A stretch of DNA of 63,813 nt, filler included, from Octopus bimaculoides (Eukaryota): NCBI RefSeq assembly GCF_001194135.2. It is 8 parts of 7 records of this genome, joined end to end, with 100 filler letters (N's around TTAATTAATTAA, not from the genome) between each part and the next. Parts side by side here need not be neighbours in the genome. Positions count along the whole stretch, not along the records: positions 1 to 4,211 come from NW_026304631.1; positions 4,312 to 21,173 come from NC_068981.1; positions 21,274 to 31,004 come from NC_069004.1; positions 31,105 to 34,088 come from NC_068987.1; positions 34,189 to 41,411 come from NC_068986.1; positions 41,512 to 51,031 come from NC_068987.1; positions 51,132 to 62,454 come from NC_068997.1; 1 more part is not named here. One strand, 5' to 3'. Numbering within the stretch: the first letter of the stretch is position 1; every line of letters begins with the position of its first letter. Below are positions 3,865 to 57,235 of the stretch, piece after piece. The position numbers and the translations under genes are program-made. The notes under the pieces are model-generated. The model saw nothing but the letters and a program-made list of their open reading frames with translations. It had not been told where the DNA came from and made no database searches.

Positions 3865-3927
3865 GATGAGTGTATATGCATATTTCAAAAGTTATTGCTC
3901 TTTCATCAGTACCACATCCAACCCATC
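3865..3927 (-). ncRNA. Type I hammerhead ribozyme, family H1, intact core
   Basis: The minus strand reads GAUGGGU-UGGAUGUG-GUA-CUGAUGA-AAGAG-CAAUAA-CUUUU-GAAA-UAUGCAU-A-UAC-ACUCAUC. Stem I is 7 bp plus an 8-nt bulge plus 3 bp, stem II is 5 bp, stem III is short, and the cleavage triplet is AUA. Confidence 0.85.
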
Positions 3928-4311
3928 AACTATCTATGAATGCATTGATTAAATATCTACGAAGTTAAGCAGTGTAGCACAATTGGGTAGATCAATATAT
4001 ATGTGGCAAATGGTACACACAATTTCTGGCAAAGAAACAGTATTTTGTTTTGCAAACATAATATACTACCAACTATATTAAAGTTTTACAAATTAATAAC
4101 TTGTCTTGCTTGTGTGTTAGCAGTGTGATGTTTTTATTTTTAAGATTCTTCACAGATTTTCCATAAATTTCAAAGTCAGCACTAAAAGTTATGACATTTA
4201 TGTCTATATAANNNNNNNNNNNNNNNNNNNNNNNNNNNNNNNNNNNNNNNNNNNNTTAATTAATTAANNNNNNNNNNNNNNNNNNNNNNNNNNNNNNNNN
4301 NNNNNNNNNNN

Positions 4312-4735
4312 GCCCCTAACCATAGGGAATTGATCAGCCAATTCATACAAAATATAGGAACCCACAACATCCGCTATTTGAGCTGAGTCAGAACTTCCCA
4401 TAGGAACATCGAAAGCATTAGGAGTATCTTTACGAATCCAAATCTTATCATTAAAAGAAATAAAGGACTTCCGAGCAGCTAACACTACTTCTATTTCATC
4501 CCTAGTAAGCCCTGCCTTGTTATGAAAGAACCAAAGAGCCTTATTAAGTACGCTAGCGTTAATAGAAGCATAAAAATTAGAAATATCAAACTGAATAAAT
4601 TTAGCATTACTTTTGTTTTCAATAGAACGAAACCATTCAATAACCTGATCAGTACTAGACCATAAATTCAAAAGTAATCCATCAATTATAATAGGAATAT
4701 ACCTATCCAAAATACTTTTACTGATAATCCCAATC
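4312..4735 (-). mobile_element. Penelope-like element RT fragment
   Basis: IGIISKSILDR...WSSTDQVIEWF...FIQFDISNFYASI...FDVPMGSSDSAQIADVVG. These match the PLE RT motifs QFDIxxFYxSI and FDVxMGS. The fragment is cut by a gap. Confidence 0.85.
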
Positions 4736-6150
4736 CCATAGATTGTTTGTGTCAAGATTGATACTTTCTATAGCATCGGGGAATCTTTGCAAGTTGCTTG
4801 ATAATTTAAAGTTTGCAACATTTAACTTTTTATGTACCTTAGGACCAGACTGTTGATTTTTAGGCATTATCGAAAACAATTTTTTGCACGCACTAGACGA
4901 TGGTCAGTCCAGCTCTATGCTCTTCTCTTGGCCCGAACGCTAGAAACGTCTCTCAATCAATCGCACTTTTGATCAGAATATAATCAATGAGATACCAGTG
5001 CTTAGATCCTGGGTGCATCCAGGTGGTTTGATATCTATTTTCTGCTTAAACAGAGTGTTGGTGATAACCAGATTATTCTCAGTACAAAACGTCGGAAGAG
5101 CTACTCCATTTTTATTACATTTTGCAATCCCATGTCGGCCTAAAATAAGCCATGAAACGTAGTCCTTTCCAACTCTTGCATTGAAATCTCCCTATATGAC
5201 CAGCTTGTCAGAAATTGGTAATTTTCTCAATAATTGTGCTAGATAGTCATAAAACTGTCCTCCAGTTTCATCAGAATGGGACATTGTTGGTGCATAAATA
5301 CTGACAACGGCAAAAAACCTACCTTTTGTCAGTTTAATACGACATGACGTGGTCCGTTCAGATATACCACTTGGAAACTCTGCAAAGAGTATGCTAATGT
5401 ATTCTTGAGAGCAAACCCAACACCAGATTCTCTATGCTGACCCTTAGGTAGGCCTCTCCAAAAGATAGTATATCCATAAGTAAGTTCATTTATTTGACCC
5501 TCACCAGAGAGACGAGTTTCACAGAGCCTAACTACATCAAGGGAATATTTTTTAAGCTCACATGCAATAAGTGCAGTACGCCTTTCTGGCCTCTTGTTGA
5601 AATTATCATCAAGAAGTGTGCGCACATTCCAACAGCCAAAGTTCAAAGGATGCTTATTTTTACTTTTTCTTGAAAATTGTTCGACCACAGTGGCAGGATG
5701 ACGCCCAGGCCCAGCCTGTGATACACTGGGACGCCTGCCGAGGCAGACCTCTTTCCCTGACGTTCTCAAACCTTTTTTGCCATTTACTGAATCTGTTTGA
5801 GACATTTTAGAGTAAGTTACAAGTGCATTTTCAGGTTTCTGCCAACCAACAAATTCAATGATTTTACTAAGATTTGGTGTACAGGAAGTAACTGTGCAGA
5901 TGAATAATTTTCAGTTGGTGTAGCTTGCACTGCACTACCTCCACCTATTGGCTCAAGAAGACTTTCATCTGTGTGACATGAAAATTGACAAAGCCAGGAA
6001 CTTCCAAGGCCTTAGGTTTTATTTCGGAGATTTCCTTCTCCTAAGTAGATTACCAACCAAGGTTAAAGAGCTTCTACCTGTCCATGAGGTAAGGTATCCC
6101 ATTCCGGACACCAAACCGACACTCACTCTATAAAGTGATCAAATATCACT
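4736..6150 (-). mobile_element. RTE LINE 5' part: 5' UTR and AP endonuclease
   Basis: FGCWNVRTLLD..RPERRTALIACELKKYSLDVVRLCETRL..GEG...ESGVGFA, VVSIYAPT, GDFNARVGKD, DHRLV and KKLNVANF, with frameshifts. Confidence 0.9.
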
Positions 6151-54044: not shown

Positions 54045-54080
54045 CTTTCTATGGAAGAGCCTAGGCTCGAAACGTTAAAG
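54045..54080 (+). ncRNA. Hammerhead-shaped motif with a decayed core (family H5)
   Basis: CUUU-CUAUGGA-A-GAGC-CUAG-GCUC-GAA-ACGU-U-AAAG. The stems are intact but the core deviates from CUGANGA. Confidence 0.55.
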
Positions 54081-56229
54081 ACTTTTTCACTTCCCGAGCT
54101 TTAAATTAATACATCTGTTTGTTGTCTTTGTTGTCTACACCACCTGAATTCGTCTTGTTTTTTGGGGGTTTTTTTGTTAATTCTCCCCTTATATATATTC
54201 TGTATTTATATTCAACAGCACACTCATTTATGTGTTTATGTAAGCACAAATTTTCTTCATTTCTTAATTTATATATTTACTTACTGAACGGCATAACGAA
54301 CAAACTTTTAACAATATGAATTATCCATGTGACATTGTAATTCTTTTCATAAGTGTTCTAAAACTATCCAGGGAAATACTACTTTCATTACCGGTATGTA
54401 ATTTTACAACCCCTCGATCTGTTACTAGTTTGATAAGTGCTAAAGCACGAAAATTGCCGCCCTTCATTCACTCTAGTTCTGCTACTAAATATTCATAAAA
54501 GGCTACATGAATGTGTGTGTGTGTGTGTGTGTGTGTGTGTGTGTGTGTGTGTGTGTGTGTGTGTGTGTGTGTGTGTGTGTGCGCGTGTGTGTGCGTGCGC
54601 GTGTGTATCTGCCTATATTATAACTTGGAAATAATTTTGATAGACAGTAGTCATTTTTAAAAAATCAATTGGAAAAGCCATTCTATTTATTGATAAATGG
54701 TGCACACTTTCCTGTTGCCGGCGGGATTTGAACTCAGAAAAAGAGGTGTGCAATCAATACTGAGGGCGACAAAAGTACTTATTTTATCACCTTAAATTTC
54801 TCAGGTGCTTAAAATTATTATTAAGGGAGCTAAAGTAACTCTCGATAACTGCAGTGAGTCAATTGCATGTACTGACGTCGATTTGACCTGATAGCTCCCA
54901 TCTTGAATATCTAGTCACGTGCCTATGCTTTATCAAATGCTGACGAATTGGCGAAGTCTTGCAGTATTTCGTTAGGAGATTTTTTTAATGTTGTAAGTTC
55001 AAATCAGCTTGTCTTTTCTCCTTTTCTTGACGATAAGGAAAAAGATAAGCCAAGTACTGAAAGTCGATATAATTACTCCGAACACATGCACAAGATAGGA
55101 AGACACATGACTGCAGTGGTACAACATAATGGAATCAAACTCAGTATTTCATGATTGAAATTCACACTCTTTCACCATTCAGTCCCTAAACTGCACGAAA
55201 TCAAAACTGGCTGATGTGATATAAATGGCCATATCTGTCAGCTCTTTAATCTCTCAGCCATAATAACAAATCATTGACCCACACTGATAATTTGTTGCTT
55301 TGTGTCAATGACAGAAATAATTGATATCTGCCATAATAAGGGTTGAAAGTTCTAGAAACTATAGAGTGCTGACAAAAATGTTGTTTCCTCTTTCATTATG
55401 TCTCTCTCGTCAAATTCCGGATTTCAACCCCGCAATTATCGAAATATTGCAAAATACATCGGGGATTCTAGCACTCGCGTAAAATTTCGTTTAGAGACAG
55501 AAAAGTCATAAAAAGCCTTATCAATATTTCATGTTTATTTGCAGATTCCGGATTTTCAATTTCGGCTCTACTAGTCTTACATCTTACACTTTTCTCTATT
55601 TTCTCCCGCTTATGATAACATCACGAGCATGTATTCGTGCCCAAGTAAATATGTGCATATATATATAGTATTATTTTCAAGCATTTTTACCTGTCAATAA
55701 TCACACACACATACACACGCACATACACATGTGCACACACACACACGCAACTACATACATATATGGACATAGGCATAACTTGCATAGTTGTCAGGTTGAA
55801 AAGTTTGCTTCACAAATATTTATTTNNNNNNNNNNNNNNNNNNNNNNNNNNNNNNNNNNNNNNNNNNNNNNNNGTCTCAAATATAATCCTCTACTTTTAC
55901 ACAGGTTTTGGACGAACGGGTACTCCAAAGGTTCCTAGACAAGGTATTGTCTAAAAGTTCTGCTTATCTATCTATCTATCCATCTATCTATATGTCTGTC
56001 TGTCTGTCTGTCTGTCTCTCTACTCTCTGCCTGTCTATTTGTCTGTTTGCTTTCTGCATGTCTATCAAATGGAGCGATTTGCCCAAAGTATTACCACTCT
56101 TCCACGCCAGATATCTCGATCTTCCCTAGCAATTTTCATGTCCTAAGTTCCATAACCAGTGTTATCCGCCAATTGATCAACATCTGTTGTTCTAGGTGTG
56201 CCGTTCACTCTTTATGTGTCTTTGCATGA

Positions 56230-57235
56230 GTTTTCAGAATAGTAGATCGCTGGATATTTCATCCTTGCTTTTACATAACATCTTCCTCTGATTACCGAGG
56301 TGATGGTAGGAAGACTGCCACACAGTCACTGCTTTGCAAAGTGTTGCTACCAAGAAAGATTGAGAACTGCACGAAACATTCTTGTGCATGTTTTGCCAAG
56401 CTTCTTTTGAAAACTCTTGTTTAGCATCCTTGCGGAAGAGCCGTAAAGAAGCATTGATTTAGCAACTGCTTTTAAGAAAGCCTTCTTCATGTTGCCAGGA
56501 ATAGAGGACATTCATATTATTCTTAGTCTCTTGTTAAGGTTATCTCAACAGATTTTGTATAGAAATTATAGTCAGCTCTGGTGTATTACAACGTTTCGTA
56601 TCCGAATACATCTAGGGTAAACAACGATGCGATCGAAGATGGAAAAATAGGTAATGGGTGTATATATGTAAGATTAGTATAGAGTTACACCGTTATATCT
56701 AGTGGCTATTTGAGCAATGAGTTCATGGATGGTTAATGGGTTAGATGTAGTACTGAAGAAGGAGCAAGAACTCCAGAAATATGCATATACACCCATTACC
56801 AATTTTTCCATCTTCCATCGCATTGTTGCTTACTTTAAAAGCATTGGGATATGCAAAATCGTAACAAATTTTCTGTAGAAAATCTGTAGAGATAAACCTA
56901 GCAACTGATTTAATGGCACTGCTAACACATTAGGACATAGCATTGACTTATAAAGCGTTTAATATATTTTGTAGTATATCATGGTTGCATAATGAAATAT
57001 GGTGTCCCCACAAGTCATTAGTATTCTGAGTCTGTCCAGGGCATTTCTGTGGTTTTGCAGCTTTTCCCTGGACATTTCTTTCTGTTGAAGCACTGTTAAT
57101 TCCCAAGTAGGTAAAGTCCTCAACCATCTTTAGATGGGTTCTTTTCAAAGTATAGATGTCATCTGTTCTGTCTACCACCTTAGAAGACTCACATTTAATG
57201 TGGTACACAATAGAATCAAGCACAGGATCTCAAAA
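56230..57235 (-). mobile_element. RTE-X remnant split by an H1 insertion
   Basis: About 57040-57235 reads DDIYTLK.T.LKMVEDFTYLGINSASTE. About 56230-56480 reads FLKAVAKSMLLYG...KKLG.TCTRMFRAVLNLSW*QH...LP.IT.VIR. Confidence 0.65.
56734..56798 (+). ncRNA. Type I hammerhead, family H1, second full copy
   Basis: UAAUGGGU-UAGAUGUA-GUA-CUGAAGA-A-GGAG-CAAGAA-CUCC-A-GAAA-UAUGCAU-A-UAC-ACCCAUUA. It shows compensatory changes relative to 3865-3927. Confidence 0.8.

Follow-up and report, generated by a model that had tools for sequence, protein, structure and literature searches.

Animal genomes are known to carry small self-cleaving hammerhead ribozymes in more than one kind of mobile element. Metazoan retrozymes are one such setting, those of mussels being units of 350-390 bp with a 2-bp or palindromic helix III (PMC7229834), and an origin of retrozymes from the ends of Penelope elements has been proposed (preprint 10.64898/2026.07.22.740005). 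Penelope-like elements themselves are another, where the role of the hammerhead has been called unclear (PMC8557442). The canonical metazoan hammerhead is characterised by a helix I of 6 bp and by a loop 3 that is palindromic (PMC4209133), and pairing of palindromic stems III in dimers is described as the rule among such hammerheads (PMC4209133, PMC3088659). In a squid, 235 Rfam hammerhead matches have been counted, without sequences (PMC6962438). Here we describe a hammerhead-bearing repeat of Octopus bimaculoides, found in a stretch of 63,813 nucleotides joined from 8 parts of 7 records of assembly GCF_001194135.2 (the window).

The likely explanation of this repeat is a type I hammerhead core in a ~360-390-nt non-coding unit, present in hundreds of copies, which was spread by Penelope-like retroelements as a non-autonomous, retrozyme-like passenger and whose ribozyme is predicted to cut multimers to unit length. 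The core is intact in two copies, the unit is closed and permuted, its copy number is high, and one copy has an inverted, truncated partner.

An intact core in an abundant closed repeat

Four copies of the repeat lie in the window (Table 1). Copies A and B both have CUGANGA, GAAA, a stem II capped by a loop of six bases and a short stem III, and with these the complete type I core (C3 U4 G5 A6 N7 G8 A9, G12 A13 A14, A15.1-U16.1, H17); stems II and III are closed and stem I is open, as the type I definition requires. Copies C and D lack the full core. Judged by its sequence, this is a hammerhead core of type I, and self-cleavage is predicted for it. A descriptor of the type I hammerhead, written with the motif already known, matched exactly A and B in the window and nothing in 200 dinucleotide shuffles. 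An Rfam search, which a preliminary description of this DNA had proposed as a check, returned no hammerhead family for the whole window (E up to 1), and none for 301-base stretches around A and B even at E up to 10.

That preliminary description gave the sequence and coordinates of the two motifs, 3865-3927(-) and 56734-56798(+), correctly. The motifs align without gaps, and the shared fold it proposed can be formed by both, with standard pairs in 35 of 36 cells; what it overlooked is an A·A mismatch at the base of stem II in copy B (56760/56775). Because ~94% of the placed depth has T at 56775, copy B is a damaged copy. Among the 40 of 218 difference rows inspected, majority letters depart from B at 56743, 56749, 56775 and 56801, and the one at 56775 gives back a 5-bp stem II. 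Between A and B there are no differences in the core (0/10) or in the 12 bases after GAAA (0/12), against 25/84 in the flanks; over the whole 65-nt motif 11 positions differ (Fisher p 0.08 against the flanks). Pairing was said to survive this divergence, and two-sided changes do occur at 2 of the 18 pairs (G-C/A-U in distal stem I, A-U/G-C in stem II), with one-sided changes at two more, but with two sequences the covariation is not significant alone, being matched by 131 of 500 shuffles.

For comparison with reads and contigs, four of 24 public runs were placed on window positions 56480-57140 at 80% likeness: the DNA runs X2 (organism A) and X14 (organism B), and the RNA runs X21 and X22, raw RNA-seq of one study, ~6% of each of which was read. 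Depth drops to flank level beyond 57031, on the 3' side of copy B. Copies A and B are permuted, the segment 3' of the motif in B standing 5' of the motif in A (A 4170-4034 aligns with B 56867-57006, 100/143; A 3983-3804 with B 56679-56865, 135/187). Among the 15 of 207 contig joints inspected in the copy B region, head-to-tail joints run from 57024/57025 to 56684 or 56726 in two contigs plus one contig of X2 and one of X14, with one more separately tabulated. The permutation and the contigs that join B's end back to its start show that the unit is closed. It is non-coding, with a GC content of 0.34 (B) or 0.30 (A) and a longest stop-free frame in B of 62 codons. For a terminal redundancy within A, the alignment does not exceed shuffles (score 23, shuffled maximum 28), and none is claimed.

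The unit is present at roughly 450-1,050 copies in the two organisms. Contigs placed on the B region number 2,491 (X2) and 2,001 (X14), most of them less than 90% like B, and summed depth in the three motif bins is 562-1,047 (X2) and 451-795 (X14) times that of unique flank, which gives no exact copy number. Within the element, depth in X2 and X14 alike is greatest in the two bins that cover 56756-56801, which counts for the retrozyme-like reading, though bin depth also tracks the closeness of B to the family in each bin. The insertion of B itself is common to both organisms, since an X14 contig spans its 3' junction with two differences in 150 bases.

Copy D, missed in the preliminary description, shares 99 of 135 positions with B 56785-56904 and scores E 5e-31 with a profile in which it is itself included. 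Penelope elements have been described with an inverted, 5'-truncated copy beside the 5' end (PMC8557442), and D stands in just this arrangement next to B. The 5' end of D is the equivalent of 56785-56788, within a TA run that contains both predicted cut sites; this is a single case, noticed post hoc, in a run prone to slippage. Copy C has a 23-nt deletion between 9761 and 9760. It had been described as a third copy at 9665-9880 lacking the core, and CUGANGA and most of stem II are indeed gone, but GAAA and stem III remain and the span is about 9626-9870(-). The wider claim of an abundant ribozyme-bearing retroelement family is borne out by depth of 450-1,050 times the flank, the closed non-coding unit and the Penelope-type inverted copy; its variant, a pseudo-long terminal repeat (pseudo-LTR) of an autonomous element, is not shown.

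Table 1. Features of the hammerhead repeat, Penelope-like remnants and placeholders, in window coordinates
Feature	Position	Strand	Remarks
Copy A	3790-4205	-	About one unit, about 388 nt, other phase than B
Hammerhead motif, copy A	3864-3928	-	CUGAUGA from 3909; predicted cut after 3875 or 3873
Copy B	56664-57024	+	One unit length, 361 nt
Hammerhead motif, copy B	56734-56798	+	CUGAAGA 56753-56759, stem II 56760-56775, GAAA 56776-56779
Perfect 10-nt palindrome	56779-56788	+	Starts at A15.1; forms stem III of register 2
Copy C	9626-9870 (about)	-	Ends against a (TGTA)n run
Copy D	56531-56665	-	Inverted, 5'-truncated, head to head with B
Penelope-like reverse transcriptase fragment, Hydra-clade-like	4312-4767	-	Same strand as copy A; candidate helper type
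Hydra-like reverse transcriptase remnant	18566-18904	+	18653-18898 has 71% protein identity to 4444-4689
Hydra-like reverse transcriptase remnant	14361-14855	-	Broken
Hydra-like thumb region	near 7894-8700	-	Broken
Placeholders	4212, 21174, 31005, 34089, 41412, 51032, 62455		Seven, identical, 100 bases each (N44, 12-base linker, N44)

Two registers for the predicted cut

The motif can be folded in two registers. In register 1, that of the preliminary description, the predicted cut lies after 56787, stem III has 2 bp with a loop that is not palindromic, and stem I consists of a 3-bp proximal helix, an 8-nt bulge and an 8-bp distal helix. In register 2 the predicted cut lies after 56789, two bases beyond, and stem I pairs 56744-56752 (56748 bulged) with 56790-56797, followed by an internal loop and six further pairs; in this register the motif of copy B extends to 56804. 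The self-duplex of the palindrome is predicted at -9.5 kcal/mol, as against -5.1 for stem III of register 1. Standard pairs in registers 1 and 2 number 22/22 and 21/22 for copy A (energy -6.7 and -3.9), 20/22 and 18/22 for copy B (-6.2 and -1.4), and 22/22 and 21/22 for the majority letters (-11.7 and -12.2). Because the alternative register, with its palindromic stem III, fits equally well, the cut may fall two bases further on than had been described.

For the family as a whole we lean slightly towards a cut in dimers after the second AUA, that is, register 2. Hydra hammerheads given in File S2 of PMC8557442 have a stem III of 3-4 bp with a loop of 1-3 bases, the same layout as register 2, and a second hammerhead family in the window shows this layout as well. 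That second family lies at 16666-17117 in a head-to-head inverted repeat, a typical Penelope-type end; it has CUGAAGA at 16759(-) and 17021(+), a stem II region of ~40 nt, an 8-nt stem III that is palindromic, perfectly so in the minus copy, and a 7-bp stem I in the plus copy.

That register 1 is instead the working form, active as a monomer, with the 8-nt bulge in contact with loop II, a 3-bp proximal stem I and a 2-bp stem III, is less likely but a serious alternative, and several features speak for it. All 22 of its pairs are present in A, including one two-sided change in the distal helix, whose pairing probability is 0.92-0.94, and it beats register 2 by 2.8 (A) and 4.8 (B) kcal/mol. It leaves the 1.1-2.1 pair next to the core intact; copy A also keeps 10.1-11.1 in this register, while B breaks it. 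Copy D may begin one base from the register-1 cut, and a 2-bp stem III with a tetraloop has been described in invertebrate retrozymes (PMC7229834). Against this, the non-palindromic loop 3 leaves the 10-nt palindrome unaccounted for, and the proximal stem I, with 3 bp, has half the canonical length of 6 bp (PMC4209133); on both counts the likeness to fast Sm-alpha-type ribozymes seen in the preliminary description is doubtful. The proximal helix has a predicted pairing probability of 0.00 in A and B, and the same holds for register 2. Working of register 1 would touch the register only and is consistent with the retrozyme-like element model.

That both registers work is improbable. There is a still slimmer prospect of a natural two-register hammerhead in the full sense. 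Such a sequence would keep two catalytic folds of almost equal energy, each excluding the other, with stem II in common and cuts two bases apart; one would act as a monomer and the other in dimers paired through the palindrome. In that case the inverted truncated copies of the family would also start at the ribozyme cut and give direct genomic evidence for cleaved RNA as the template of Penelope-type retrotransposition. Should both registers cut, the motif would be a ribozyme switch of a kind unusual in nature; failing that, the find is one to be expected.

Spread of the repeat and its possible helper

We propose that head-to-tail copies would be transcribed, that two motifs would then pair by means of their palindromic stems III (10 nt), with cleavage after the second AUA as in register 2, and that the resulting unit-length linear or circular RNA may be reverse-transcribed by a Penelope-like reverse transcriptase/GIY-YIG protein at AT-rich sites. 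Such a course would leave the phase of the unit varying from copy to copy, and some copies would have an inverted, truncated one at their 5' end. No coding sequence is present in the unit, and the helper is probably a Penelope-like reverse transcriptase of the Hydra clade; fragments that resemble this clade lie in the window (Table 1). These remnants matched either database proteins (P0001-P0003) or, on inspection by eye, the alignment of the Hydra clade in the supplement of PMC8557442. The reverse transcriptase core and thumb resemble that alignment by eye; the RWK, DKT, CxCX5C linker and GIY-YIG regions fall outside the fragments in the window, and the database relative P0003 has RWK and DKS. 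Pfam gave no match for the Penelope fragments. A placement in the Naiad clade was ruled out, the motifs being those of the Hydra clade in the same supplement.

Several observations weigh against the retrozyme-like reading. The window has no tandem array of two complete motifs. Head-to-tail joints come from just a few contigs within the inspected set, and the contigs are too short to show arrays. No convincing target-site duplication was found, the best 7-mers being offset from the ends of the copies. Circular folding of units A and B is not better than that of 60 shuffles (z -1.13 and -0.13, respectively, both copies being decayed). The link between copy A and the reverse transcriptase fragment at 4312-4767 is one of adjacency across the placeholder 4212-4311. 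The fold in the preliminary description can be formed, but it is neither the sole fold nor the one of minimum energy; for A and B the lowest energy belongs to a third fold, which is inactive. In register 2 a C·A mismatch stands beside the core (the 1.1-2.1 pair) in both A and B, and PMC3088659 rejects hammerhead candidates with a broken core-adjacent pair. Among genomic retrozyme dimers, one of nine was cleaved (preprint 10.64898/2026.07.22.740005).

The RNA runs point the same way. Reads on the unit number 512 (X21) and 367 (X22), or 40 and 31 per million, none of them 99% like B, and 96-97% continue into unlike sequence. Pile-ups of RNA 5' ends at the cut site, for which the preliminary description had suggested looking, do not occur in X21 or X22, nor does any site where many molecules begin or end, and no RNA joint was among those inspected. 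The two read directions are equally common in X21; in X22 they are mixed along the unit. The RNA signal looks like read-through of many scattered copies and gives no indication that the unit is cleaved or circular. Depending on how RNA was selected for these libraries, small circles could have escaped them, and they may also be unable to show pile-ups of ends.

The copies in the window are old, with ribozymes probably slow or dead, because the stem II base of B is broken, half the core of C is gone, D has no core, and A and B carry the C·A beside the core in register 2. In favour of register 2, a variant that lacks 56748 and has G at position 2.1 (GGTG directly before CTG) was seen in 17 X22 reads and a single contig of X2. 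If its 3' strand resembles that of B, stem I of register 2 would run unbroken over 8 bp.

An alternative is that the copies are 5'-truncated 3' tails, or pseudo-LTRs, of an autonomous Hydra-clade Penelope element, each newly made, with A ending the element whose reverse transcriptase begins at 4767. The same-strand reverse transcriptase fragment does lie 107 bases (placeholder included) from the 5' end of A, copy D is typical of inverted truncated copies, a microsatellite lies at the end of copy C, and Hydra elements all have hammerheads near their 3' end and target (TA)n (PMC8557442). We nevertheless consider this explanation unlikely. The unit closes on itself without coding sequence, as the permuted order of A and B and the contigs from B's end to its start indicate; the remaining Hydra-like remnants in the window have no copy of the hammerhead repeat behind them; and the one octopus Hydra hammerhead listed in File S2 of PMC8557442 has another sequence. 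It is a yet remoter prospect that the hammerhead is a fossil from a Penelope end in a repeat that later spread as DNA, satellite-like or like a miniature inverted-repeat transposable element, with the ribozyme uninvolved: the missing RNA end signal, the core-deleted copy and the weakness of the whole motif's conservation relative to its flanks would suit it, but core and stem III are invariant between copies 20-30% apart whose stems change with pairing kept, reverse transcription would fit the permuted ends and the inverted truncated copy, and the copies are dispersed, not arrayed.

The window around the retrozyme-like repeat is animal DNA rich in AT and microsatellites, with many assembly gaps. 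Placeholders mark joins of unknown size, most of them adjoining simple repeats, so that neighbourhood across them is not reliable. Fragments of long interspersed nuclear elements lie at 4770-5910(-), adjoining the Penelope reverse transcriptase fragment, 11582-12013(+), 36184-36540(-) and 55900-56520(-), adjoining copy D (endonuclease PF03372 E 5e-4, RVT_1 E 1e-3; the last two identified by eye). An abundant dispersed repeat of ~200 bp, resembling short interspersed nuclear elements by size, occurs at 25102-25315, 25597-25710, 34284-34907, 42158-42620, 45148-45358 and 59209-59916, several times in direct tandem (three copies at the last of these). Long imperfect palindromes lie at 2009-2245 and 52853-53036 (arm identity 76% and 79%), and short tandem arrays at 3400-3640, 38546-38887 and 62967-63673 (about 21-bp, 86-bp and a 450-bp-spaced duplication).

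Comparison with described hammerhead systems

No description of this octopus family or of a two-register hammerhead was found in the literature searched, with most subscription papers, Repbase and Dfam outside that search, and the supplement of PMC7229834 may list relatives. The octopus motif is absent from the hammerheads listed in File S2 of PMC8557442 and from motif searches of that paper's supplement, and motif scans of metagenome contigs gave no match. The sole match in prokaryote genomes, on a Bacillus contig, was rejected (1.4 expected by chance, no stem II, no family homology). The repeat adds an abundant hammerhead family that Rfam does not detect and that was not found in print. With about a thousand copies, the family permits a direct test of whether copy ends accumulate at the cut site, as copy D suggests they may.

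With canonical type I hammerheads (Schistosoma Sm-alpha, Rfam Hammerhead_1) the motif shares the 13-nt core, an interrupted stem I and an A-rich six-base loop II. Loop II resembles the Sm-alpha loop. The octopus motif differs in its proximal helix I, which in register 1 has 3 bp and in register 2 has 8 bp interrupted by a bulge, rather than 6, and in a stem II base that is A-U rather than G-C; the 6-bp helix I, the 4-bp helix II with G10.1-C11.1 and the Rfam match expected of an Sm-alpha-like hammerhead are all lacking.

Hydra-clade Penelope hammerheads given in File S2 of PMC8557442 share CUGANGA, an extra A/U at the base of stem II and GAA, and with register 2 a 4-bp palindromic stem III with a 1-2-nt loop. 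Their elements also share AT-rich targets and inverted 5'-truncated copies. They stand behind a reverse transcriptase-endonuclease open reading frame and have short, simple stems I (PMC8557442), whereas the octopus unit has no open reading frame.

Relative to metazoan non-LTR retrozymes, as described in PMC7229834 and 10.64898/2026.07.22.740005, the octopus repeat is dispersed, its copies are ~20-30% apart, one has an inverted truncated partner, and two registers are possible. Complete-unit arrays, circular RNA and strong self-pairing, including a highly self-paired circle, are not shown for it, and for this reason we call it retrozyme-like and not a strict retrozyme. What it has in common with them is a type I hammerhead with a weak helix III, 2-bp or palindromic as in those described, in a non-coding unit that matches the mussel units in size, lies within the retrozyme range of 150-450 bp and is low in GC (<50%), and the co-occurrence of Penelope-like elements; solo monomers, too, have been described for retrozymes.

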